64,000 bases of DNA from Eledone cirrhosa (lineage: Eukaryota). The stretch lies in NCBI GenBank assembly GCA_964016885.1, contig OZ024743.1, positions 52,700,001 through 52,764,000 on the forward strand, given 5' to 3'. Numbering within the stretch: position 1 is the stretch's first letter; every line of letters begins with the position of its first letter. The translations under genes and the position numbers were made by a program. A model generated the notes under the pieces. The model was not told the DNA's origin and did no database searches. It saw only the letters and a program-made list of their open reading frames with translations. Of the stretch, positions 840 to 34,986 are shown one piece after another.

Positions 840-945
840 CTTTTTTTTTTTTTTTCTTTTTATTTATCTATTATTATTATTATTTTTTTTTTTTTCTTTC
901 TCCTCGTGCAATGGCCATACTCGATAACGAGGGGGCAGCCATCAT
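1..945 (+). mobile_element. 3' end of RTE-clade non-LTR retrotransposon: ORF C-terminus with three C2H2 zinc fingers, microsatellite-rich 3'UTR, terminal stem-loop, then (TATG)n
   Basis: ORF to 615 has KRYKDSLKASLK..WE..A.DR.KWR typical of RTE C-termini, then CSVC..H...H, CQTC..H...H and CRLC..H fingers. It ends GCCATACTCGATAACGAGGGGGCAGCCATCAT followed by (GTAT)n. The same end recurs at 23153-23198 (minus) and 54036-54080. Confidence 0.85.
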
Positions 946-1149
946 GTATGTATGTATGTATGTATGTATGTATGTATGTATGTATGTATGTATGTATGTA
1001 TGTATGTATGTATGTGTCTGTATGTATGTATGTATGAGTGTTGTATGTACGTATGTATGTATGAATGTATGTATGTATGTGTGTATGTATGTGTGTATGT
1101 GCGTATATATGTATGTGTGTCTGTCTGTCTGTATGTATGTTTGCATGTA

Positions 1150-4100
1150 TGTTTTCTCTTAATTTCGAGTACATTTTTGACCGGCCACCTTCCTGGGGGT
1201 GGGGGAGGGGTTGCTGTTTTGCTGCGGAAACACCTGGACCTCGTAACACAGACGGTACATCTGGACCCGGAGGGTCGTCTGGTGGTCCTAGACGTTGACG
1301 GTAGTGAAGGTGGAGACTTCAGGCTGGTGGCCGCATATGCCCCATCCGGGACACCGCGGCCAGACTTCTTCAAACGTCTAGAGACTTTTCTGGGAACGTC
1401 CCGCTCCTTGCTTTTAGTGGGGGACTGGAATGGAATTCTAGATGCACGTTGGGACTATGTGGGAGCATGTCCCGATAAAGGGGGGGGGGGGTGTAACAGC
1501 CTCAAACAGATAATCGACCGATTTGACCTGGCCGATAGATATCGACTAGATTTTCCGACTGCGCCACTGTGGACGTGGAGTAATCGTAGCGGAACATCTA
1601 GATAGTACCCAGATATGTTTCTAGTTAGAAATAAGGATAGGGACATGTTAAGCTGTCCACAAATGTTCATGGTTGCCTATTCAGATCACAAACTAGTGAC
1701 CTGCATGGCCAACCTTGATAGAACCCATAGACAAGGACCCGGCTACTGGAAGCTGAACTTGTCGTTACCGACAAGCAAAGCCTACAGTAGACGGATTAGC
1801 ACTTTAGTTAAACAGCACTTGACAGGGGCCATTGTCAACAACAGATGGTGGTACTCACTCAAGAGGGCAGTTAGATTAAACTCGATAGTTTTTAGTAAAG
1901 AATTAGCGTTAGATAGAAATAGAACCGAGAAGGAACTGGTAGATAAAGTAGAAGAGGCAATTAGAAGTGGCAACGTAGCCAGCGTGCTAGCAACGAGAAC
2001 GGCCTTGGACCAGTTCTTCGACGCAAAGCACGAGGGCTGCGTTGTCAGAAGCAAAATACGTGCTCTGGGAAACGAGGGAGCCGAAGCTGTTAGCTGGGCC
2101 CGAGTGACGGAGGCAAAAAGTGGCAACAAGTCCACGATTCGGTCTTTGAAGGACCAAAACGGACGCGTGATACGTGAGCCGAAGCAGATGTGTGCAGCTT
2201 TTCAGCGGCACTTTGCTCGGCTGTTCGGGGGGAGCGGCGCGCCGGGAGAGGCTATGGATTTCGGTCCATACCTCGACGGCCTACCGCGACTCTCGGACAG
2301 CGAGGCAAAGTTCTGCGAAAAGCCTATTTCAGCCACTGAGATAGGGGACGCGCTGAGCCAATGCGGCAAACGCAAATCTCCAGGTCTCGACGGTCTACCC
2401 TACGAATTTTACATAGCAATGCCGGACTTATTCTCCGGTCTCCTGGAAGCGGTCTACTGCAACTGGCAACAGAACGGGAGAATTCCCAGTTCTGTAACCG
2501 GGGGCGTGGTCACACTAATCAGGAAGGACGAGAATAAGGGGGATGACATAGGCAACTTCCGGCCCATAACTCTGCTAAACACAGAGTTACAGATTTTGGC
2601 CAAGGTGTTGGCAAAGAGGCTGGCGCTTGTCGTCGAGAACCTGGTGGGAGAAGCGCAGACATGCGCAATCCCGACCAGGTCCATACACGACAACCTCCAC
2701 CTCATGCGATACATCATAGAGAGGGTAGGGTGTAAACCCGGCATCGGTGGGGCCCTGATCAACTTGGATCAGTCTAAGGCTTTCGATAGGGTTGACCATC
2801 GTTACCTGGATGCGGTGCTCGAGGCGGCAGGCTTCGGACCCGTGTTCAGGGGCTGGATTGCTGCAATGCACAACAGCAACATCTGCTCAAGGGTCAAGGT
2901 GAACGGCTACCTCTCGGAGCCGTTCCATATTACGTGATCCATTCGACAGGGATGCCCTCTCTCCTCCCTTCTGTACGTACTGACTCTCGAGCCACTACTG
3001 CGGAAGCTGGAGCTATTGCAGGGCATCCCCCTGGAACCGGGACTGCGGAAAGCGGCGTCGGCCTACGCCGACGACGTGACAGTAATGGTGTCGAGCGCCT
3101 CGCAAATCGAGGAAGTCGGCACCTTACTGAAGGAATACGAAAGTGTCACAGGAGCGAAGCTGAACCGGGACAAGTCCATCGGTTTGCAACTCGGATCGTG
3201 GAGAGGCAGACCGATGCCTTCCGATGGCGTCGTCGGACGCTGGACGGAAGGACCGGTAAAGCTGCTCGGCGTCTGGTTTGGTCCGGACCTCCAGGTGGAG
3301 AAGAACTGGAACGAAGTGACGGCCAAGGTATTTGCACTCACCCAGAAGTGGGCCGAGTGCAAACTATCCTTGAAAGGTCGAGCGGAGGTGGCGAACACTT
3401 TTATAGCGTCCGCCATCTACTACCGCTTGACCGTCGTGCCTTGTCCAGCCAAAACGCTCGCCAAAATGGAGCGCGCGCTCTTCCGATTCCTTTGGAAGAG
3501 GCGGGCTTCTTTGGTGAGAAGATCCATCTGCTGCCAACACCCTTCTAACGGAGGGCTGGGGATGCCGTGGTTGACGATGCGCAAACACGCGCTCAGGCTG
3601 CGGCATCTCTACGTATTGCTCACCGGACAGCCGGTGTGGGCCCCGTTCGTGAGGTGAGCCTTCGCACGACTCGTCTCGCTGACCGAGCTGCAGTCCTGGG
3701 TCAAGCAAAGACCGAGGAAAATGGGCGACTGGCCCATCGAATGTGCTCAGGCGCTCACAGCCCTCTGACAGGCGGACCCGGCGATCAGTGGAGACTCCAC
3801 TTCGTCATTCTATAGAGGGTTGGTCCGCAGCAAGTGCGACGACGCGCTCGGTGAAACTCTAGGCGTAGAGGAAGATGAACTGGCCAGTCTGTTCGGTAGG
3901 ACCTTCCGCCCGGGACCGATGGACAACTTCCAAAAGTCCCTGGCCTGGCAGTGCTACCGAGGAGCTCTACCAGTTCGAGACAAGCTCTACAGACATGGGC
4001 GCCCGGGCAGGGGCCCTGCAAAGAAGATCTGTCCGAGGTGCGTGCGAGACGAAGAAACCGTCGCGCACGCATTCATACACTGCCCGGGCGTCACTGACCT

Positions 4101-4700
4101 GTGGGGTTGTAGAACGACTATTGTCGCGGGTAGGACCAATCCAGTTGACCACCGAGTCCATTGTCATGATCAAACCGCCACCCTCCTTCAAAAACGAAGG
4201 AGAGGCGGTTTTCCTTTGTGTGATAGCTATGGCGAAAGAGGTTGTATGGTGGACAAGGTTGAAAGGGCTGAGGTCAGACACCTTTCTCTCCGGCCAACAA
4301 CTGATTCTTTTTTTCAAATACCACTTTGGAAGAAGAATCAGGATGGAGAGAGAGGTGCTGTACCCCAGCAAGTTTTATGAAAGGTGGGTGAAAGTGGCGA
4401 GAATGGCCCGAGTGAATGGGCCTTCTCTCTATATCAGCCTGTAGGTTGAGGAAAAGGAGGTGGAGAGGAAAGGAGTACAAACTCTTCGTACTCCTGGAGA
4501 TGAGGGTTGCACATTTTTTTCGGGGGTATGTGTTACCCATATAAACTGTCTCCCTCTATTGGGGAAAATCGACTAACTTTTTAAATTCCATTTGTGATAA
4601 CATTTTACACGTTTTTATTGTATGTAAACTTCCCCCTTTGTATTTGTCCCCCTTTTTTGTGCCCCTATGGCTAATAAAGAAATATATCTATCTATCTATC
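1150..4700 (+). mobile_element. 5'-truncated Tx1/L1-clade LINE, ORF2 pseudogene (APE endonuclease, RT, C-terminal zinc knuckle)
   Basis: Motifs GVAVLL, GDWN, SDH, GPGYWKLN, KSPGLDG, FRPITLLN, DQSKAFDRV, RQGCPLS, YADD, GGLG, CPRC..ET..H...C. Stops at about 1605, 2937, 3657 and 3769, and a frameshift near 4108. AATAAAGAAAT then (ATCT)n tail. Confidence 0.93.
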
Positions 4701-6269: not shown

Positions 6270-9200
6270 TATAAAGTTGCTCTCGGGTGTTTGTTGACAG
6301 TGACCAGGCGATGGTATAAAGTTGCTCTCGGGTGTTTGTTGACAGTGACCAGGCGATGGTATAAAGTTGCTCTCGGGTGTTTGTTGACAGTGACCAGGCG
6401 ATGGTATAAAGTTGCTCTCGGGTGTTTGTTGACAGTGACCAGGCGATGGTATAAAGTTGCTCTCGGGTGTTTGTTGACAGTGACCAGGGGATGGTATAAA
6501 GTTGCTCTCGGGTGTTTGTTGACAGTGACCAGGGAATGGTATAAAGTTGCTCTCGGGTGTTTGTTGACAGTGACCAGGCGATGGTATAAAGTTACTCTCG
6601 GGTGTTTGTTGACAGTGACCAGAAATGGTATAAAGTTGCTCTCGGGTGTTTGTTGACAGTGACCAGGGAATGGTATAAAGTTGCTCTCGGGTGTTTGTTG
6701 ACAGTGACCAGGGAATGGTATAAAGTTGCTCTCGGGTGTTTGTTGACAGTGACCAGGCGATGGTATAAAGTTTCTCTCGGGTGTTTGTTGACAGTGACCA
6801 GGGAATGGTATAAAGTTGCTCTCGGGTGTTTGTTGACAGTGACCAGGCGATGGTATAATGTTACTCTCGGGTGTTTGTTGACAGTGACCAGGGAATGGTA
6901 TAAAGTTGCTCTCGGGTGTTTGTTGACAGTGACCAGGCGATGGTATAAAGTTGCTCTCGGGTGTTTGTTGACAGTGACCAGGCGATGGTATAAAGTTGCT
7001 CTCGGGTGTTTGTTGACAGTGACCAGGCGATGGTATAAAGTTGCTCTCGGGTGTTTGTTGACAGTGACCAGGCGATGGTATAAAGTTGCTCTCGGGTGTT
7101 TGTTGACAGTGACCAGGCGATGGTATAAAGTTGCTCTCGGGTGTTTGTTGACAGTGACCAGGGAATGGTATAAAGTTGCTCTCGGGTGTTTGTTGACAGT
7201 GACCAGGCGATGGTATAAAGTTGCTCTCGGGTGTTTGTTGACAGTGACCAGGCCATGGTATAAAGTTGCTCTCGGGTGTTTGTTGACAGTGACCAGGGAA
7301 TGGTATAAAGTTGCTCTCGGGTGTTTGTTGACAGTGACCAGGCGATGGTATAAAGTTGCTCTCGGGTGTTTGTTGACAGTGACCAGGCGATGGTATAAAG
7401 TTGCTCTCGGGTGTTTGTTGACAGTGACCAGGGAATGGTATAAATTTGCTCTCGGGTGTTTGTTGACAGTGACCAGGCGATGGTATAAAGTTGCTCTCGG
7501 GTGTTTGTTGACAGTGACCAGACGATGGTATAAAGTTGTCTCGGGTGTTTGTTGACAGTGACCAGGGAATGGTATAAAGTTGCTCTCGGGTGTTTGTTGA
7601 CAGTGACCAGGCGATGGTATAAAGTTGCTCCGGGTGTTTGTTGACAGTGACCAGACGATGGTATAAAGTTCCTCTCGGGTGTTTGTTGACAGTGACCAGA
7701 CGATGGTAGAAAGTTGCTCTCGGGTGTTTGTTGACAGTGACCAGGCGATGGTATAAAGTTGCTCTCGGGTGTTTGTTGACAGTGACCAGACGATGGTATA
7801 AAGTTCCTCTCGGGTGTTTGTTGACAGTGACCAGGGAATGGTATAAAGTTGCTCTCGGGTGTTTGTTGACAGTGACCAGGCGATGGTATAAAGTTGCTCT
7901 CGGGTGTTTGTTGACAGTGACCAGGCGATGGTATAAAGTTGCTCTCGGGTGTTTGTTGACAGTGACCAGGGAATGGTATAAAGTTGCTCTCGGGTGTTTG
8001 TTGACAGTGACCAGGCGATGGTATAAAGTTGCTCTCGGGTGTTTGTTGACAGTGACCAGGCGATGGTATAAAGTTCCTCTCGGATGTTTGTTGACAGTGA
8101 CCAGGCGATGGTATAAAGTTGCTCTCGGGTGTTTGTTGACAGTGACCAGGCGATGGTATAAAGTTCCTCTCGGATGTTTGTTTACAGTGACCAGGCGATG
8201 GTATAAAGTTCCTCTCGGGTGTTTGTTGACAGTGACCAGGCGATGGTATAAAGTTGCTCTCGGGTGTTTGTTGACAGTGACCAGGCGATGGTATAAAGTT
8301 GCTCTCGGGTGTTTGTTGACAGTGACCAGGGAATGGTATAAAGTTCCTCTCGGATGTTTGTTTACAGTGACCAGGCGATGGTATAAAGTTCCTCTCGGGT
8401 GTTTGTTGACAGTGACCAGGCGATGGTATAAAGTTGCTCTCGGGTGTTTGTTGACAGTGACCAGGCGATGGTATAAAGTTGCTCTCGGGTGTTTGTTGAC
8501 AGTGACCAGGCGATGGTATAAAGTTGCTCTCGGGTGTTTGTTGACAGTGACCAGGCGATGGTATAAAGTTGCTCTCGGGTGTTTGTTGACAGTGACCAGG
8601 GAATGGTATAAAGTTCCTCTCGGATGTTTGTTTACAGTGACCAGGCGATGGTATAAAGTTGCTCTCGGGTGTTTGTTGACAGTGACCAGGCGATGGTATA
8701 AAGTTGCTCTCGGGTGTTTGTTGACAGTGACCAGGCGATGGTATAAAGTTGCTCTCGGGTGTTTGTTGACAGTGACCAGGGAATGGTATAAAGTTGCTCT
8801 CGGGTGTTTGTTGACAGTGACCAGGCGATGGTATAAAGTTCATCTCGGGTGTTTGTTGACAGTGACCAGGCGATGGTATAAAGTTCCTCTCGGATGTTTG
8901 TTTACAGTGACCAGGCGATGGTATAAAGTTGCTCCCGGATGTTTGTTTACAGTGACCAGGCGATGGTATAAAGTTGCTCTCGGGTGTTTGTTGACAGTGA
9001 CCAGGCGATGGTATAAAGTTGCTCTCGGGTGTTTGTTGACAGTGACCAGGGAATGGTATAAAGTTGCTCTCGGGTGTTTGTTGACAGTGACCAGGCGATG
9101 GTATAAAGTTCCTCTCGGATGTTTGTTGACAGTGACCAGGCGATGGTATAAAGTTCCTCTCGGATGTTTGTTTACAGTGACCAGGCGATGGTATAAAGTT

Positions 9201-9909
9201 GCTCTCGGATGTTTGTTTACAGTGACCAGGCGATGGTATAAAGTTGCTCTCGGGTGTTTGTTGACAGTGACCAGGCGATGGTATAAAGTTGCTCTCGGGT
9301 GTTTGTTGACAGTGACCAGGGAATGGTATAAAGTTGCTCTCGGGTGTTTGTTGACAGTGACCAGGCGATGGTATAAAGTTCCTCTCGGATGTTTGTTGAC
9401 AGTGACCAGGCGATGGTATAAAGTTCCTCTCGGATGTTTGTTTACAGTGACCAGGCGATGGTATAAAGTTGCTCTCGGATGTTTGTTTACAGTGACCAGG
9501 CGATGGTATAAAGTTGCTCTCGGGTGTTTGTTGACAGTGACCAGGCGATGGTATAAAGTTGCTCTCGGGTGTTTGTTGACAGTGACCAGGGAATGGTATA
9601 AAGTTGCTCTCGGGTGTTTGTTGACAGTGACCAGGCGATGGTATAAAGTTCCTCTCGGATGTTTGTTGACAGTGACCAGGCGATGGTATAAAGTTCCTCT
9701 CGGATGTTTGTTGACAGTGACCAGGCGATGGTATAAAGTTCATCTCGGGTGTTTGTTGACAGTGACCAGGCGATGGTATAAAGTTCATCTCGGGTGTTTG
9801 TTTACAGTGACCAGGCGATGGTATAAAGTTGCTCTCGGATGTTTGTTTACAGTGACCAGGCGATGGTATAAAGTTGCTTTCGGGTGTTTGTTGACAGTGA
9901 CCAGGCGAT
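6270..9909. repeat. 45-bp tandem satellite (~80 units) with a local 270-bp six-mer higher-order repeat
   Basis: Unit GTATAAAGTTGCTCTCGGGTGTTTGTTGACAGTGACCAGGCGATG. The variant pattern recurs at 9121, 9391 and 9661. Confidence 0.97.
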
Positions 9910-17021: not shown

Positions 17022-17228
17022 AATTTTCAATCACATATATTTTTATTTGTTTGACCCGAATTACTTGGTCGTTTCTATGGTTGTGCGGATGATTGCTTAA
17101 CCATCGTCTCAGTGTTTTTGGCCTTTAACGTATGTTGTAGCTCTGGTTCATCTGAATCATTGAGCGCTTGCCACACATCTCGGAAGTTGTTTTTCGTTAA
17201 TTCCTAAGCCGAAATACAATTCTCGCTA

Positions 17229-17232
<4 letters not shown>
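17022..17232. mobile_element. (TA)n-associated dispersed element with a fixed terminus. Other copies at 19335-19545 (inverted) and 28398-28498
   Basis: Shared GCTTGCCACACATCTCGGAAGTTGTTTTTCG..CGAAATAC..TCTC(G)CTAATTT terminus abutting (TA)n in all three. Confidence 0.7.
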
Positions 17233-17260
<28 letters not shown>

Positions 17261-17272
<12 letters not shown>

Positions 17273-17760
17273 ATAGCTTTCACCGTATTTTTGACTAAAG
17301 GAATTTTAGCTTGATAACGGGGTTTAGAACCCTCAGATAAATGGAAAAAGATGAGTATTGACGTACATGGGAGCCCACATCTGTGGTTATCGCGACCACT
17401 GTGCTACCATTACACCAACAGATCACCCATCTCTTTCCATTCAAATTAGAAACTACATTCTTAGCGAGTTTAAATGGCAAGTAAGTATGTTTTGAAACAG
17501 TAAGCGAGTTTGAAATTAGAAAATATATAGCTTTCACCGTATTTTTGACTAAAGGAATTTTAGCTTGATAACGGGATTTAGAACCCTCAGATAAATGGAA
17601 AAAGATGAGTACTGACGTACATGTACGTCAATACTCATCTTTTTCCATTTATCTGAGGGTTCTAAACCCCGTTATCAAGCTAAAATTCCTTTAGTCAAAA
17701 ATACGGTGAAAGCTATATATTTTCTAATTTCAAACTCGCTCACTGTTTCAAAACATACTT
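17261..17760. mobile_element. 254-bp-unit tandem plus inverted element carrying a tRNA-like domain, inserted in (TA)n
   Basis: Direct repeat at 17261 and 17515. Inversion centre TGACGTACATGTACGTCA at about 17621. Related diverged copy at about 27770-28040. Confidence 0.8.
17358..17423 (-). ncRNA. tRNA-like cloverleaf (pseudo-tRNA, T-loop deleted)
   Basis: TGGTGTAATGGTAGCAC D-arm/A-box and a perfect GTGGT/ACCAC stem with a 7-nt loop CGCGATA. Confidence 0.6.
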
Positions 17761-18053
17761 ATATATATATATATAAACAAGGTTTAGTAAATAATGAAAA
17801 AGTTTCAAAATAAATTTTAAAAAATTGACTTTACCTACTATAGTTACCTTTACCGACCGAAGAACAAACTTGGTCGTTCCGACTGCTGCTAGCAATAGCT
17901 GTGGCTAGTTTGACCTACCTCCTTTTGCCTCTATCGTTGCTACGGCCCTTGATAAACCTGTTCTACATCATCCACTCTCATCCCAGGAACAGTTTTTGAT
18001 AGCGCTAGTTTGTGATTTAGATTCAGGAATTTTATATTCTTTGAATGAAAAGA

Positions 18054-18137
18054 ACCTTCTGACGAGAATCTTTCTTTGCAACGAAGGCCGTATGGTCTCC
18101 GTTTTATTTTTGGGATTCGAAACCGATCGGTAAAGGT
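18054..18137 (+). ncRNA. Type I hammerhead ribozyme with a large loop 2
   Basis: Stem I ACCTT/AAGGT, core CTGACGA, stem II GAATCTT/GGGATTC, GAAA, palindromic stem III ACCGATCGGT, cleavage triplet GUA (after 18132). Confidence 0.85.
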
Positions 18138-18536
18138 AACTATAGTAGGTAAAGTCAATTTTTTTAAATTTATTTTGAAACTTTTTCATTATTTACTAAA
18201 CCTTGTTTATATTTGTTCTGGCTCGTTAATTTATTAACCCGCCATTGAACCACACTGGCATTTGGTTGGACAATACATGCGTACCTTGGCGCCTTATGCG
18301 TGAAGGAACGTATTTCATATTACTACTACCTCCACTAACGTTGAGAACAAACTTGGTCGTTCCGACTGCTGCTAGCAATAGCTGTGGCTAGTTTGACCTA
18401 CCTCCTTTTGCCTCTATCTTTGCTACGGCCCTTGATAAACCTGTTCTACATCATCCACTTTCATCCCAGGAACAGTTTTTGATAGCGCTAGTTTGTGATT
18501 TAAATTCAGGAATTTTATATTCTTTGAATGAAAAGA

Positions 18537-18620
18537 ACCTTCTGACGAGAATCTTTCTTTGCAACGAAGGCCGTATGGTCTCCGTTTTATTTTTGGGATT
18601 CGAAACCGATCGGTAAAGGT
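18537..18620 (+). ncRNA. Type I hammerhead ribozyme (copy 2 of the 483-bp unit)
   Basis: Same fold as 18054-18137. Confidence 0.85.
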
Positions 18621-19019
18621 AACTATAGTAGGTAAAGTCAATTTTTTAAAATTTATTTTGAAACTTTTTCATTATTTACTAAACCTTGTTTATATTTGTT
18701 CTGGCTCGTTAATTTATTAACCCGCCATTGAACCACACTGGCATTTGGTTGGACAATACATGCGTACCTTGGCGCCTTGTGCGTGAAGGAACGTATTTCA
18801 TATTACTACTACCTCCACTAACGTTGAGAACAAACTTGGTCGTTCCGACTGCTGCTAGCAATAGCTGTGGCTAGTTTGACCTACCTCCTTTTGCCTCTAT
18901 CTTTGCTACGGCCCTTGATAAACCTGTTCTACATCATCCACTTTCATCCCAGGAACAGTTTTTGATAGCGCTAGTTTGTGATTTAAATTCAGGAATTTTA
19001 TATTCTTTGAATGAAAAGA

Positions 19020-19103
19020 ACCTTCTGACGATAATCTTTCTTTGCAACGAAGGCCGTATGGTCTCCGTTTTATTTTTGGGATTCGAAACCGATCGGTAAA
19101 GGT
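19020..19103 (+). ncRNA. Type I hammerhead ribozyme (copy 3, G10.1>T mutation)
   Basis: CTGACGA-TAATC breaks the first stem II pair. Otherwise the same fold. Confidence 0.7.
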
Positions 19104-19276
19104 AACTATAGTAGGTAAAGTCAATTTTTTAAAATTTATTTTGAAACTTTTTCATTATTTACTAAACCTTGTTTATATTTGTTCTGGCTCGTTAATTTAT
19201 TGACCCGCCATTGAACCACACTGGCATTTGGTTGGACAATACATGCATACCTTGGCGCCTTGTGCGTGAAGGAACG

Positions 19277-19333
<57 letters not shown>

Positions 19334-19653
19334 TAAATTAAGGAGAGTCGTATTTCGGCTTAGGAATTAACGAAAAACAACTTCCGAGATGTGGCAAGCG
19401 CTCCATAGAAACTAGTGAACTAGAGCAACAACATAAGTTAAAAGGCCAAACACACTGAGACGATGGTTAAACCATTATCCGCACAACCATAGAAACGACC
19501 AAGTAATTCGGGTCAAACGAATAATAAAATATGATTGAAAATTATACCCGGACTCCTGGAAGGTTGGTAATATCCAGTATGGGGTTTCTGCAACTCCTAA
19601 ATCAAGTACTGTCTGCTTAGACAAATAATGTTAAGCTTTTGGTATGATGATCG

Positions 19654-22990: not shown

Positions 22991-23361
22991 AATACGTGTA
23001 CATACATAGATACATACATACAAACATACATACATACATACATACATACATACATACATACATACATACATACATACAATACATACATATATACAATACA
23101 TACATACATACATACATACAATACATACATACATACAATGAATACATACATATGATGGCTGCCCCCTCGTTATCGAGTATGGCCATTGCACGAGGAGAAA
23201 AAAAAAATATATATATATATAGAAATTGGAATAAATGCTCTGAAATAGCGATATATATGTGAATATAGACATAGAATATTCGAAAATATTCTGTATGTTT
23301 ATAATAAACATTTTGAAGACCTAATCGCTATAGAATAGAATACGTCACGTATTACAATTAG

Positions 23362-23450
23362 ATTCTCGATAAAAGCAAGGGAAGTAATCTACGCGTTTCA
23401 TTCTCGTTAGAAATCATCAGGACTACATATCCAGTGCTTTTATCGAGAAT
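23362..23450 (-). ncRNA. Type I hammerhead ribozyme (310-bp unit, minus arm)
   Basis: Reverse complement of 23727-23815. Confidence 0.85.
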
Positions 23451-23726
23451 GACACAGCTAGAGACTTATAGAATACTTAGCTGTGTACAGGAACTGGTTT
23501 GAAAGAGCGGTTGCCGGTCCGGCAGAAATTAGAAATTGGAATAAATGCTCTGAAATAGCGATATATATGTGAATATAGACATAGAATATTCGAAAATATT
23601 CTGTATGTTTATAATAAACATTTTGAAGACCTAATCGCTATAGAATAGAATACGTCACGTATTACAATTAGATTCTCGATAAAAGCAAGGGAAGTAGGAA
23701 GTATTCTATAAGTCTCTAGCTGTGTC

Positions 23727-23815
23727 ATTCTCGATAAAAGCACTGGATATGTAGTCCTGATGATTTCTAACGAGAATGAAACGCGTAGATTACTTCCCTT
23801 GCTTTTATCGAGAAT
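23727..23815 (+). ncRNA. Type I hammerhead ribozyme with extended stem I
   Basis: Outer stem ATTCTCGATAAAAGCA/TGCTTTTATCGAGAAT (16 bp), internal loop, GTAGTC/GATTAC, CTGATGA, TTCT-AACG-AGAA (with a T.T 10.1-11.1 pair), GAAA, palindrome ACGCGT, GUA cleavage after 23787. Confidence 0.85.
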
Positions 23816-24036
23816 CTAATTGTAATACGTGACGTATTCTATTCTATAGCGATTAGGTCTTCAAAATGTTTATTATAAACATACAGAATATTTTCGAATA
23901 TTCTATGTCTATATTCACATATATATCGCTATTTCAGAGCATTTATTCCAATTTCTAATTTCTGCCGGACCGGCAACCGCTCTTTCAAACCAGTTCCTGT
24001 ACACAGCTAAGTATTCTATAAGTCTCTAGCTGTGTC

Positions 24037-24125
24037 ATTCTCGATAAAAGCACTGGATATGTAGTCCTGATGATTTCTAACGAGAATGAAACGCGTAGAT
24101 TACTTCCCTTGCTTTTATCGAGAAT
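24037..24125 (+). ncRNA. Type I hammerhead ribozyme (310-bp unit)
   Basis: Same sequence as 23727-23815, offset +310. Confidence 0.85.
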
Positions 24126-24346
24126 CTAATTGTAATACGTGACGTATTCTATTCTATAGCGATTAGGTCTTCAAAATGTTTATTATAAACATACAGAATA
24201 TTTTCGAATATTCTATGTCTATATTCACATATATATCGCTATTTCAGAGCATTTATTCCAATTTCTAATTTCTGCCGGACCGGCAACCGCTCTTTCAAAC
24301 CAGTTCCTGTACACAGCTAAGTATTCTATAAGTCTCTAGCTGTGTC

Positions 24347-24435
24347 ATTCTCGATAAAAGCACTGGATATGTAGTCCTGATGATTTCTAACGAGAATGAA
24401 ACGCGTAGATTACTTCCCTTGCTTTTATCGAGAAT
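24347..24435 (+). ncRNA. Type I hammerhead ribozyme (310-bp unit)
   Basis: Same sequence as 23727-23815, offset +620. Confidence 0.85.
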
Positions 24436-24533
24436 CTAATTGTAATACGTGACGTATTCTATTCTATAGCGATTAGGTCTTCAAAATGTTTATTATAAAC
24501 ATACAGAATATTTTCGAATATTCTATGTCTATA

Positions 24534-24587
<54 letters not shown>

Positions 24588-26257: not shown

Positions 26258-26326
<69 letters not shown>

Positions 26327-26329
<3 letters not shown>

Positions 26330-27425
26330 CATTGACTTTAGGAAGGCCTTTGATTCTGTGGACCGTTACTGCCTGATGAAGATCTTACAGGCTTATGGAA
26401 TCCCCAAGAGGATAGTGGACCTGATATCACTGCTCTACACCAACACCAAAGCCCAAGTCATTACACCTGATGGGATGACAGAGTTCTTTGAGATACTGGC
26501 TGGAGTGCTCCAGGGAGATACATTGGCTCCCTACCTTTTTATCATCGTAGTGGACTATTGTATGCGCCTTGCACTGGAGAAACACCAGGACTCTGGCTTT
26601 ACTGTGGCACCGGCTCAGAGCAGGAGAGTTGGGGCGAAAAAGGTATCGGATGCTGAGTTTGCCGACGACATAGTTTTGGTGACAAATACAGTGAAGGAGG
26701 CAGGGGATTTGATGCGGGAGGTTGAGACTGTGTCGATGAGTGTGGGGCTGAGAATGAATGAGACTAAAACAAAATATCTGGTAGAGAATGTTGAGAAGCC
26801 AGAGGGGATCACTAATGTAGGCGGGAAGCCGCTGGAATTGGTTGAGGACTTCCTGTATTTGGGAGCAAAGATTGGGAATACGGAAGATGATGTGGTTGAG
26901 AGGAAGAGCAAGGCCTGGGCGGCGTGTCACAGCTTGAGATCGGTGTGGAAGTCAGACCTTCGTAGAGACCTGAAAATCCGCCTCTTCATTGCTGTAGTGG
27001 AGTCTGTGCTGCTGTATGGGTCTGAGACTTGGACACTGACCAAGAGACTCACTCAGATGGTGGATGGGTGCTACACGAGAATGCTGAGGATGGCTCTGAA
27101 CATTAATCAGTATACACTGAGGATGAAAAACTCAGAGCTGTATGGGAGCATCCCAAAAGTCAGCTCAAAAGTGACACAGAGAAGACTGAGGTTGGCTGGA
27201 CATGCTCACCGACATCCAGAGTTGACATTGCACTCAGTGCTCCTTTGGGAGCCCCTACATGGACACACTGGAAGAGGAAGACCAAGGTTAACATATGTTG
27301 ATGCCCTAAGGACAGACACTGGTCTGTTGGAGATGCAGGATATGGCAGCGATAATGAGGGACAGAGACCGCTGGAGAGAACTCGTCCATGGATCTCGGGA
27401 ATTTTACCCGCCTTAGATAGATAGA

Positions 27426-27679: not shown

Positions 27680-27869
27680 ATTTAACCAGTTTTAAACTAG
27701 TAAGGCCACTGTTCAGAAGAGTACTCGATAGTTTAGATACGGGCCCCAACTCTTTTTAATATATATATATCAGCAGCTGAGCCGAAATTTTCCAGGCACA
27801 GATCCTTGAGATCGACGGATGCCAATACAGCCGATCCATGTTATTTTTCACTCATTTACTTTAATGGGT

Positions 27870-27940
27870 GACATATTGGTGTAAGGGTAACACAGTGGTC
27901 ATGATAGCCGAACATGTGGGTTCGTGTACCATGTACGTCA
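27870..27940 (+). ncRNA. tRNA-like cloverleaf inside a repeat (pseudo-tRNA)
   Basis: Acceptor GACATAT/GTACGTC+A, A-box TGGTGTAAGGG, T-arm GTGGG-TTCGTGT-ACCAT. Homologous to 17358-17423. Confidence 0.6.
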
Positions 27941-28046
27941 ATTCTCATCCTCTTTCCAATCTGGGTTTTTATAACTCCAACTATTAGACTAATTTACTTA
28001 GTCAAAAATACGGCGGAAGCTCTATTTCACTATCTAATATATATAC

Positions 28047-28351: not shown

Positions 28352-28404
<53 letters not shown>

Positions 28405-28495
28405 CTCTAGTTCACTAGCTTCTATGGACCGCTTGCCACACATCTCGGAAGTTGTTTTTCGCTAAATTCCAATAGTCGAAATACGAATCTCGCTA

Positions 28496-28653
<158 letters not shown>

Positions 28654-31489: not shown

Positions 31490-34400
31490 GAATGTTCTAT
31501 TATCGAAGTCAACTGTCCCTTTTATGTCAATATGGCGTTCTATTGTGGGAGTCAACTGTTCCTTTTTATGTCAATATGGCGTTCTATTGTGGGAGTCAAC
31601 TCTCCCTTTTATGTCAATATGGCGTTCTATTGTGGGAGTCAACTGTCACTTTTATGTCAATATCACGGTTCTATTGTGGGAGTCAACTGGCCCTTTTATG
31701 TCAATATGGCGGTTCTATTGTGGGAGTCAACTGTCACTTTTATGTCAATATCCCGGTTCTGTTGTGGGAGTCAACTGTCCCTTTTATGTCAATATCACGG
31801 TTCTGTGGTGGGAGTCAACTGTCACTTTTATGTCAATATGGCGGTTCTGTTGTGGGAGTCAACTGTCACTTTTATGTCAATATCACGGTTGTATTGTGGG
31901 AGTCAACTGTCACTTTTATGTCAATATCACGGTTGTATTGTGGGAGTCAACTGTCACTTTTATGTCAATATCACGGTTCTGTTGTGGGAGTCAACTGTCA
32001 CTTTTATGTCAATATGACGGTTCTATTGTGGGAGTCAACTGTCCCTTTTATGTCAATATCACGGTTCTGTTGTGGGAGTCAACTGTCCCTTTTATGTCAA
32101 TATCACGGTTCTGTGGTGGGAGTCAACTGTCACTTTTATGTCAATATTACGGTTCTGTTGTGGGAGTCAACTGTCACTTTTATGTCAATATGACGGTTCT
32201 ATTGTGGGAGTCAACTGTCCCTTTTATGTCAATATCACGGTTCTGTTGTGGGAGTCAACTGTCCCTTTTATGTCAATATCACGGTTCTGTGGTGGGAGTC
32301 AACTGTCACTTTTATGTCAATATCACGGTTCTGTGGTGGGAGTCAACTGTCACTTTTATGTCAATATCACGGTTCTGTTGTGGGAGTCAACTGTCACTTT
32401 TATGTCAATATCACGGTTCTGTGGTGGGAGTCAACTGTCACTTTTATGTCAATATCACGGTTCTGTTGTGGGAGTCAACTGTCACTTTTATGTCAATATG
32501 ACGGTTCTATTGTGGGAGTCAACTGTCCCTTTTATGTCAATATCACGGTTCTGTTGTGGGAGTCAACTGTCCCTTTTATGTCAATATCACGGTTCTGTGG
32601 TGGGAGTCAACTGTCCCTTTTATGTCAATATCACGGTTCTGTGGTGGGAGTCAACTGTCCCTTTTATGTCAATATCCCGGTTCTGTTGTGGGAGTCAACT
32701 GTCACTTTTATGTCAATATCACGGTTCTATTGTGGGAGTCAACTGGCCCTTTTATGTCAATATGGCGGTTCTATTGTGGGAGTCAACTGTCACTTTTATG
32801 TCAATATCCCGGTTCTGTTGTGGGAGTCAACTGTCCCTTTTATGTCAATATCACGGTTCTGTGGTGGGAGTCAACTGTCACTTTTATGTCAATATCACGG
32901 TTCTGTTGTGGGAGTCAACTGTCACTTTTATGTCAATATCACGGTTGTATTGTGGGAGTCAACTGTCACTTTTATGTCAATATCACGGTTGTATTGTGGG
33001 AGTCAACTGTCACTTTTATGTCAATATCACGGTTCTGTTGTGGGAGTCAACTGTCACTTTTATGTCAATATGACGGTTCTATTGTGGGAGTCAACTGTCC
33101 CTTTTATGTCAATATCACGGTTCTGTTGTGGGAGTCAACTGTCCCTTTTATGTCAATATCACGGTTCTGTGGTGGGAGTCAACTGTCACTTTTATGTCAA
33201 TATCACGGTTCTGTTGTGGGAGTCAACTGTCACTTTTATGTCAATATGACGGTTCTATTGTGGGAGTCAACTGTCCCTTTTATGTCAATATCACGGTTCT
33301 GTTGTGGGAGTCAACTGTCCCTTTTATGTCAATATCACGGTTCTGTGGTGGGAGTCAACTGTCACTTTTATGTCAATATCACGGTTCTGTTGTGGGAGTC
33401 AACTGTCACTTTTATGTCAATATGACGGTTCTATTGTGGGAGTCAACTGTCCCTTTTATGTCAATATCACGGTTCTGTTGTGGGAGTCAACTGTCCCTTT
33501 TATGTCAATATCACGGTTCTGTGGTGGGAGTCAACTGTCCCTTTTATGTCAATATCACGGTTCTGTGGTGGGAGTCAACTGTCCCTTTTATGTCAATATC
33601 CCGGTTCTGTTGTGGGAGTCAACTGTCACTTTTATGTCAATATCACGGTTCTGTGGTGGGAGTCAACTGTCACTTTTATTTCAATATGGCAGTTCTGTTG
33701 TGGGAGTCAACTGTCACTTTTATGTCAATATCACGGTTCTGTTGTGGGAGTCAACTGTCCCTTTTGTCAATATCACGGTTCTGTGGTGGGAGTCAACTGT
33801 CCCTTTTATGTCAATATCCCGGTTCTGTTGTGGGAGTCAACTGTCACTTTTATGTCAATATCACGGTTCTGTGGTGGGAGTCAACTGTCACTTTTATGTC
33901 AATATCACGGTTGTATTGTGGGAGTCAACTGTCACTTTTATGTCAATATCAGGGTTCTGTTGTGGGAGTCAACTGTCACTTTTATGTCAATATCACGGTT
34001 GTATTGTGGGAGTCAACTGTCACTTTTATGTCAATATGGCGGTTCTGTTGTGGGAGTCAACTGTCACTTTTATGTCAATATCACGGTTCTATTGTGGGAG
34101 TCAACTGTCACTTTTATGTCAATATCACGGTTGTATTGTGGGAGTCAACTGTCACTTTTATGTCAATATGGCGGTTCTGTTGTGGGAGTCAACTGTCACT
34201 TTTATGTCAATATCACGGTTCTATTGTGGGAGTCAACTGTCACTTTTATGTCAATATCACGGTTGTATTGTGGGAGTCAACTGTCATTTTTATGTCAATA
34301 TCAGGGTTCTGTTGTGGGAGTTAACTGTCACTTTTATGTCAATATCACGGTTCTGTTGTGGGAGTTAACTGTCACTTTTATGTCAATATCACGGTTCTGT

Positions 34401-34986
34401 GGTGGGAGTCAACTGTCATTTTTATGTCAATATCAGGGTTCTGTTGTGGGAGTCAACTGTCACTTTTATGTCAATATCACGGTTCTGTGGTGGGAGTCAA
34501 CTGTCACTTTTATGTCAATATCACGGTTCTGTTGTGGGAGTCAACTGTCCCTTTTATGTCAATATCACGGTTCTGTGGTGGGAGTCAACTGTCACTTTTA
34601 TGTCAATATCACGGTTCTGTTGTGGGAGTCAACTGTCCCTTTTATGTCAATATCACGGTTGTATTGTGGGAGTCAACTGTCACTTTTATGTCAATATCAC
34701 GGTTCTGTGGTGGGAGTCAACTGTCACTTTTATGTCAATATCACGGTTCTGTTGTGGGAGTCAACTGTCCCTTTTATGTCAATATCACGGTTCTGTGGTG
34801 GGAGTCAACTGTCACTTTTATGTCAATATCACGGTTCTGTTGTGGGAGTCAACTGTCCCTTTTATGTCAATATCACGGTTCTGTGGTGGGAGTCAACTGT
34901 CACTTTTATGTCAATATCACGGTTCTGTGGTGGGAGTCAACTGTCACTTTTATGTCAATATCCCGGTTCTGTTGTGGGAGTCAACT
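31490..34986. repeat. 44-bp tandem satellite (~79 units) with block duplications
   Basis: Unit GTGGGAGTCAACTGTCACTTTTATGTCAATATCACGGTTCTGTT. The rare variant AACTGGCCC recurs at a 1056-bp (24-unit) offset. Confidence 0.97.

Follow-up and report, generated by a model that had tools for sequence, protein, structure and literature searches.

tRNA-derived SINEs consist of a tRNA head followed by an unrelated body. Their 3′ region is recognised by a partner reverse transcriptase (RT) (PMC6685494), and the element reported here resembles them in its head, in its unrelated body and in a 3′ region probably recognised by a partner RT. A second group of relatives comprises the non-autonomous Penelope-like elements (PLEs), for example MRC1, which depends on Chlamys; as outlined in PMC8557442 and PMC11167929, they share with our element the partial tandems, the inverted 5′-truncated copy, the tail at one end, the (TA)n target and the lack of an ORF. 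PLE insertions in general show partial tandems, an inverted 5′-truncated copy, a 30-40-bp tail and, as in the Naiad and Hydra clades, a (TA)n target (PMC8557442), and two internal RT start sites have been shown in vitro for PAc (PMC11167929); some PLE clades are described in the same two sources as also being without hammerheads. Animal non-LTR retrozymes (PMC7229834; bioRxiv 10.64898/2026.07.22.740005), as presented there, likewise have a short non-coding tandem unit and a proposed dependence on PLEs. Finally, the SINE-like hammerhead repeats of Schistosoma carry a Pol III-type promoter inside a tandem unit, as does our element; by the description in PMC6765202, the upstream unit transcribes the next one and single copies lose the promoter.

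We compared with these systems an element within a 64,000-nucleotide stretch of Eledone cirrhosa DNA (contig OZ024743.1, positions 52,700,001 to 52,764,000; "the window"), whose parts are listed in Table 1. Very probably it is a real, young and ribozyme-free PLE passenger with a tRNA-like head. Units are numbered from the first acceptor-stem base, so that the head spans unit 1-71, the T loop 52-58, and the canonical A58 corresponds to unit 56. The family unit measures 259 bp; in the window copy the T loop is shortened by 5 nt (unit 52-56) and the acceptor stem carries one change. This deletion stops exactly at the A58 position, an anecdotal case (1 in 105). Repeat mapping agreed with the original prediction that the unit has the tandem, inverted and (TA)n-flanked architecture of its hammerhead-bearing neighbours. 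The internal cloverleaf predicted on the minus strand at 17358-17423 was recovered and refined to 17359-17424. A more complete cloverleaf had been placed at 27870-27940; a head does lie there, but in a copy of another family (family B), ~75% identical, rather than of the same one.

Table 1. Coordinates in the window of the tRNA-headed element, its parts and two related or neighbouring elements
Feature	Position	Strand	Description
Whole element	17262-17761		Left arm of 1.4 units (254-bp spacing) plus inverted right arm; (TA)n on both sides
Direct repeat	17261-17369 / 17515-17623		Spacing 254; 98% identical
Inverted repeat, perfect centre	17482-17621 / 17622-17761		140 nt; 98%
(TA)n tract, outer end of left arm	17232..17261		Target
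Left arm	17262..17621	tRNA sense on minus	1.4 units, from upstream-unit position ~63 to 169; short outer end S (locus L001)
tRNA-like head (unit 1-71)	17359..17424	-	With A box; T loop/B box shorter by 5 nt (unit 52-56) in this copy; D arm resembles the genome's tRNA-Gln
Predicted stalk, 5′ strand (unit -19 to -1)	17425..17443	-	
Predicted stalk, 3′ strand (unit 74-92)	17338..17356	-	Contains T5 run 17345-17349, a potential Pol III terminator
Inversion junction	17614..17629		Palindrome centred at 17621/17622; both arms begin at unit 61-65, the family hotspot
Right arm	17622..17761	+	Unit ~63 to 202; long outer end T with PLE-type tail
(TA)n tract, outer end of right arm	17762..17775		Common to the next element
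483-bp family neighbour (control)	17771..19286	+	Type I hammerhead core; 3 tandem units plus inverted arm
Family B relative	27864..28038	+	One arm, -6 to short outer end; head 27870-27940; T for A at position 58

An intact copy of the window element's family (family A) matched the Rfam tRNA model over model positions 1-71 with 44.3 bits (cut-off 29; E 2.3e-8), which answers the Infernal-type check proposed for the fold. The window copy itself lies below detection: ARAGORN called no tRNA in the window, and Rfam returned no tRNA match over 17255-18400 at E<=5, because five T-loop nucleotides are missing and the acceptor stem is changed. Intact heads of families A, C and D were called by ARAGORN, and the two family B copies given to it were not; its Ser call on the head comes with a 4-nt variable region. 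At 17/18 nt the D arm is identical to the tRNA-Gln genes of this genome, which the whole head matches at ~60%. Both the A and B boxes are intact in the family A head, which is tRNA-derived as in SINEs, and they make Pol III transcription of the element plausible, as had been predicted. Features of a functional tRNA gene were absent, the family A loop having G33 and T37 in place of U33 and a purine at 37. In an alignment of 11 sequences (nine heads and two tRNA-Gln genes), 91.8% of the cells of the cloverleaf were paired, and 0/500 shuffles scored as high; the 17 two-sided changes in this alignment come nearly all from the contrast with the two tRNA-Gln genes. A cluster of ~29 motif matches lies on contig C1 at 168.21-168.28 Mb (L377-L405), where the scanned loci hold tRNA-Gln genes, one of which ARAGORN called Pyl (CTA anticodon).

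In each of the four families, leader and trailer of the head are predicted to pair as a stalk of 18-19 bp, with energies of -19 to -25 kcal/mol that 0-1 of 1000 shuffles reached; for the intact family A copy the duplex reached -25.2 kcal/mol, compared to -10.1 +/- 2.6 for shuffles, none of 1000 being as low. Folding of the full family A monomer yielded the cloverleaf and placed the monomer's 3′ end in pairing beside its 5′ end; no cloverleaf appeared when 180 nt were folded as a single strand (z -0.73). All four families keep a T5 run at unit 81-85, 10 nt downstream of the head. It should end many Pol III transcripts, which counts against our model, and its conservation may reflect the stalk. 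As predicted, no hammerhead core (CTGANGA) was present on either strand of the family A, B, C or window units; both neighbours have one. Rfam also reported no ribozyme in the units, a weak test in that it missed the neighbour's hammerhead as well. Over the whole window, the 150 Rfam matches listed of 211 contained only microsatellite-driven miRNA matches below cut-off.

The unit is dispersed in the 3.0 Gb genome (1,656 candidates, of which 40 were scored). A 23-nt 3′ motif of family A had 888 exact matches and a spacer motif 90, about ten times fewer, so that most copies must be shorter than one unit. The head pattern matched 1,635 times, and all 30 of the 30 loci read had this kind of body. 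Four families could be distinguished: A (unit 259 bp), C (271 bp) and D (272 bp; 2,302 matches), all with the T loop GUUCGA, and B (293 bp; 35 exact motif matches), which has GUUCGU, with T at position 58 in 63/63 alignments. Their heads are 86-96% alike and their bodies 59-81%. The tandem units, 259-293 bp, are short and non-coding, with up to ~2.5 units per arm. Family B is older (~92% identity) and was possibly copied by another RT than family A.

To describe the insertions we took the first 100 of the 888 family A motif matches, all on contig C1, which represent 79 loci; removal of 8 duplicates and 2 segmental paralogues left 69. Two arms were present at 50 of these, head-to-head in 50/50. 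In 43 of the 50, one arm had its outer end at ~161/169 (short, S) and the other at ~206/210 (long, T); six of the remaining loci combined a long with an atypical end, and one had two short ends. The two classes thus lie ~40 nt apart, with a tail of the 30-40-bp type at one end only. By analogy, they match the two internal RT starts described for PAc (PMC11167929). Beyond 102 of 114 outer ends, at least three TA units followed within 12 nt. Neither poly(A) nor any simple tail besides the target TA was found at the outer ends, as the original prediction had it, and there were two internal end classes in place of one LINE-type 3′ end; the (TA)n target leaves any target-site duplication unreadable.

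These ends bear on the simplest alternative, that the repeat is a SINE of the usual kind, dependent on a LINE, or else a fold-back repeat formed at the DNA level, its tandem and inverted forms having arisen secondarily. The tRNA-Gln-like head with its A and B boxes fits a SINE, as do some copies that run from ~+1 to one outer end, and 5′-head copies starting at ~-6 to +20 do exist in family A. Given these copies, the element is more SINE-like than was claimed in the original prediction, which set it apart from a SINE by a tRNA part internal to a tandem unit. However, two fixed outer ends split between the arms, the head-to-head arrangement in 50/50 and the lack of a tail besides target TA make this alternative very improbable. 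The element differs from tRNA-derived SINEs also in that its acceptor and T stems stay paired and that flanking spacer is needed for the stalk, in addition to ends of PLE type rather than LINE type. In its working it resembles a SINE whose partner is a PLE, and it has neither the hammerhead of a retrozyme nor the tail of a SINE.

A helper of the appropriate class is available in the genome: 10,596 GIY-YIG candidates were found, of which 150 were scored, and many RT plus GIY-YIG ORFs had a Cx4CxxC linker. One such RT plus GIY-YIG family stops at (TA)n at two points ~45 nt apart. A PLE family with RT, Cx4CxxC linker and GIY-YIG (L204, L205, L208, L213 and L214) has two ends at (TA)n and a minimal hammerhead-like motif in its 3′ region; L214 consists of two truncated ORFs, head-to-head. 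Among 40 GIY-YIG loci out of the 10,596 candidates, blastn and nhmmer identified no autonomous PLE with the 3′ body of families A-D. The partner is thus assigned by class only, since none of these 40 PLE loci shares that body, and this is a point against our model. The element differs from the described non-autonomous PLEs in its tRNA-derived head with A and B boxes and in a pile-up of inner ends at one site, and no 3′ sequence shared with an autonomous PLE was found in these loci.

That pile-up was seen when we mapped the inner ends of the arms. Of 119 inner ends from the 69 loci, 60 fell in unit 61-66 and 66 in 56-70, with none in 34-55 and three in 71-76; the most that any 6-nt stretch collected over 20,000 uniform simulations was 18. 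The original prediction of non-random junctions is thereby confirmed, and the start shared by both arms in the window holds there, but genome-wide it is a hotspot (60/119 ends in unit 61-66), not a fixed point. A hotspot-type end was present in 42 of the 69 loci and on all sub-haplotypes; it takes part in many kinds of junction, among them those of one-armed copies that abut TA directly. A single truncated master copy as the source was rejected on account of its presence on all sub-haplotypes. We also rejected readings with a fixed junction or no hotspot, which came from a best-match set (3/66 ends in 56-70) that is biased to long arms. Inner ends mapped at 55-56 were all explained by microhomology with the partner arm; therefore, the true edge of the hotspot lies at 57-58, immediately 3′ of A58.

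The sister families provided a comparison with and without this base. At the first head met, copies stopped or read through in ratios of 53/24 in family A, 29/7 in C and 21/12 in D, all with GUUCGA, and of 3/30 in family B with GUUCGU (Fisher p vs family B: 4e-9, 1e-9 and 7e-6, respectively). For these counts identical contexts were collapsed; B comprised 34 loci, C 26 loci by best 3′-body match, and D the first 30 matches, and the arms of one insertion are not independent, and a few duplicates remain in the C and D counts. Three palindromic 4-mers lie near the hotspot, at unit 61, 64 and 66, and family B, without a hotspot, keeps the same junction 4-mers as well as the cloverleaf and the stalk. 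The A58-less control is, however, one older family in which loss of A58 also weakens T-loop folding, so that methylation and structure are not separable by it. We conclude that the junction hotspot is real and that it is tied to A58.

One candidate for such a block is 1-methyladenosine (m1A). It usually also causes misincorporation, and this signature was absent here: read-through copies were changed at unit 56 in 2/105, vs a 2.1% background, so that there is no excess change at the A58 position, which speaks against m1A. In laboratory RT, as reported in PMC4787781, the enzyme stops at +1, one base 3′ of m1A, and a methyltransferase knockout abolishes this signature; TRMT6/61A methylates GUUCRA hairpin loops outside tRNA, according to 10.1101/202747. 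Judged from sequence and from these other systems, the element RNA of this animal likely carries m1A58, and the copying stop after A58 likely records a methylated base blocking reverse transcription, not cutting by tRNA enzymes.

On the same passenger, the RT could instead pause for structural reasons where the T arm is folded (the T54:A58 pair and the D-T loop contact), with resolution at the palindromic 4-mers and without methylation. In family B, which lacks A58, the T loop would be looser too, and the 4-mers at 61, 64 and 66, the missing misincorporation signal and the slowing of long arms across 28-55 are all in keeping with a pause. Against it, the edge is sharp, with no short-arm ends in 34-55, the stronger 18-19-bp stalk helix gives no comparable pile-up, the second head of long arms is mostly read through, and the stop signature is lost without the methyltransferase in the laboratory RT experiments of PMC4787781. 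We regard a pause without methylation as unlikely, if the foremost competitor to m1A58.

Another possibility is that a host nuclease cuts the RNA in the T loop. The hammerhead neighbour has a weaker cluster of ends at its own cut site (14/64 in 266-290), and cutting that left a template 5′ end at ~57-59, the tRNA fold replacing self-cleavage, would predict the same sharp boundary together with clean read-through of uncut RNA, free of misincorporation. 3′ tRNA fragments do arise by T-loop cutting. Such a cut would have to depend on A58, and it would discard the promoter and leave dead copies, which is not what a maturation step does; we consider it rather unlikely. Truncation at the hotspot removes the promoter and so does not define a unit-length RNA. 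The element differs in this from the Schistosoma repeats, whose multimers are cut by a hammerhead (as described in PMC6765202), whereas here there is none and the promoter is lost by truncation inside the head.

The remaining part of the original Pol III and RNase proposal, that RNase P and/or RNase Z act on the internal cloverleaf to set a unit-length, perhaps circular, RNA in place of a ribozyme, did not hold up and appears improbable. In its favour, the cloverleaf is kept, the monomer's 3′ end is predicted beside its 5′ end, and a second, smaller cluster of inner ends lies at about -6 to +22, near +1, with 11/119 in -6 to +19. Its position is compatible with Pol III transcription, though no proof of it. 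Yet RNase Z would leave ends at unit 72 or beyond, where 71-76 holds just 3/119, and RNase P would bound the ends at +1, while the hotspot lies at 57-66 and several ends of the second cluster at -6 to -2. The leader-trailer stalk would be expected to hinder both enzymes, and exact matches to the spacer motif number a tenth of those to the 3′ motif (90 vs 888). A sharp start at -6 was not established, as eight ends also lie at -24 to -8.

Long arms allowed us to consider the origin of the tandems. In 89 spacer-bearing arms (90 motif places), inner ends fell in 213-259 (3), 172-212 (28), 71-171 (35), 56-70 (6), 28-55 (16) and 1-27 (1). Only 4-6 of ~27 arms stopped in 56-70 of the second head, the same sequence being mostly read through; that this head is seldom a sharp stop, and that the broader 28-55 cluster is not fully explained, both weigh against m1A58. 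Of the 16/89 family A arms that end in unit 28-55, three of the best-match set end at exactly 32, and a second block in the anticodon arm of the head is possible from the long-arm ends. Discordant sites were counted at 26 loci that have two arms, including a long one: 53/99 set the upstream unit apart from both downstream copies, with 23 and 23 in the other two classes (p 3e-5); in 49 of the 53 the upstream unit was the mutated one, and shared derived changes occurred at 4 sites in 2 loci only. Copying round a circle or across joined ends, with copies identical at birth, would give equal classes, so the 53/23/23 split leans against it. Rolling-circle copying of RNase-processed circles does not predict such divergence. 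The pattern leans towards long-arm tandems copied from contiguous read-through templates. The asymmetric divergence, the mostly sub-monomer copies and the missing hammerhead core, of which type I would be expected in each unit, set the element apart from retrozymes.

Taken together, these data favour, by a modest measure, a model in which a dispersed non-coding 259-bp repeat is mobilised in trans by a (TA)n-targeting PLE, with most copies ending just 3′ of A58 through an m1A58 RT stall. The head would act as the element's internal promoter for Pol III and would be folded and modified as a tRNA is. The PLE protein would nick both target strands, and one cDNA would start at each internal RNA site (161/169 and 206/210), as for PAc in vitro. 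cDNAs stalled at m1A58 would be joined, either to one another or to the target, through whichever 2-4-nt microhomology lay nearest, which would produce the pile-up at 61-66 and dead copies without a promoter. The rarer tandem copies, including the long arm in the window, would derive from read-through RNA of tandem source loci, with few sharp stops.

A wider reading is more tentative and, in our estimate, falls somewhat short of even: that thousands of genomic copies of this SINE-like PLE parasite form a fossil RT-stop map of m1A58 on its own RNA, that the host tRNA methyltransferase brakes the element by cutting most new copies from their promoter, and that one lineage escaped by losing A58 at a cost to its B box. 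With this element, PLEs would join the partners known for tRNA-headed short elements, and the slot that a hammerhead fills in a PLE passenger would be seen to accommodate a Pol III module. Should the hotspot be m1A58, the genome sequence by itself would reveal an RNA modification made in the germ line, and the spread of retroelements would be limited by a housekeeping tRNA methyltransferase. The four natural families, with and without A58, make the m1A58 reading directly testable. Literature searches turned up neither a tRNA SINE with a PLE partner nor a case of m1A setting the truncation point of genomic copies; Repbase, Dfam or supplements may already list the family.

The 483-bp neighbour served as a control. 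Its family had 701 motif matches, outer ends at 352 and 460 in 34/45 and as many as nine units per array. Inner ends in this family are widely spread and only modestly enriched close to the cut predicted after 272 (14/64 in 266-290; p 1e-4). The tRNA head lies ~90-100 nt upstream of the first outer end, and the neighbour's hammerhead cut site ~80 nt upstream; the head thus occupies the hammerhead's slot relative to the RT start, with a much sharper, promoter-destroying mark. The outer ends of the 483-bp family are 108 nt apart, far beyond the usual 30-40-nt PLE tail, and its hammerhead, missed by Rfam, has a long insert in stem II.

A further tandem and inverted element with a hammerhead core occupies 23220-24546. 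Its unit is 310 bp and its outer ends are 31 nt apart; the hammerhead region matches GIY-YIG loci L206, L210 and L218, and another part matches L182. Another TA-ending repeat, 88% alike between copies, lies in opposite orientations around the cluster (17022-17235, 19332-19543 and 28395-28502), and the tRNA-headed and 483-bp elements are nested in the TA tract between its copies. The long ORFs of the window, inspected by eye, comprised LINE-type RT frames (928-4444, 26298-27416 and 49078-51840) and simple repeats, with no recognisable PLE ORF. Minisatellite arrays are located at 6270-9909 (45-bp x 81), 31507-34986 (44-bp x 79) and 45037-48408 (12-bp x 281).
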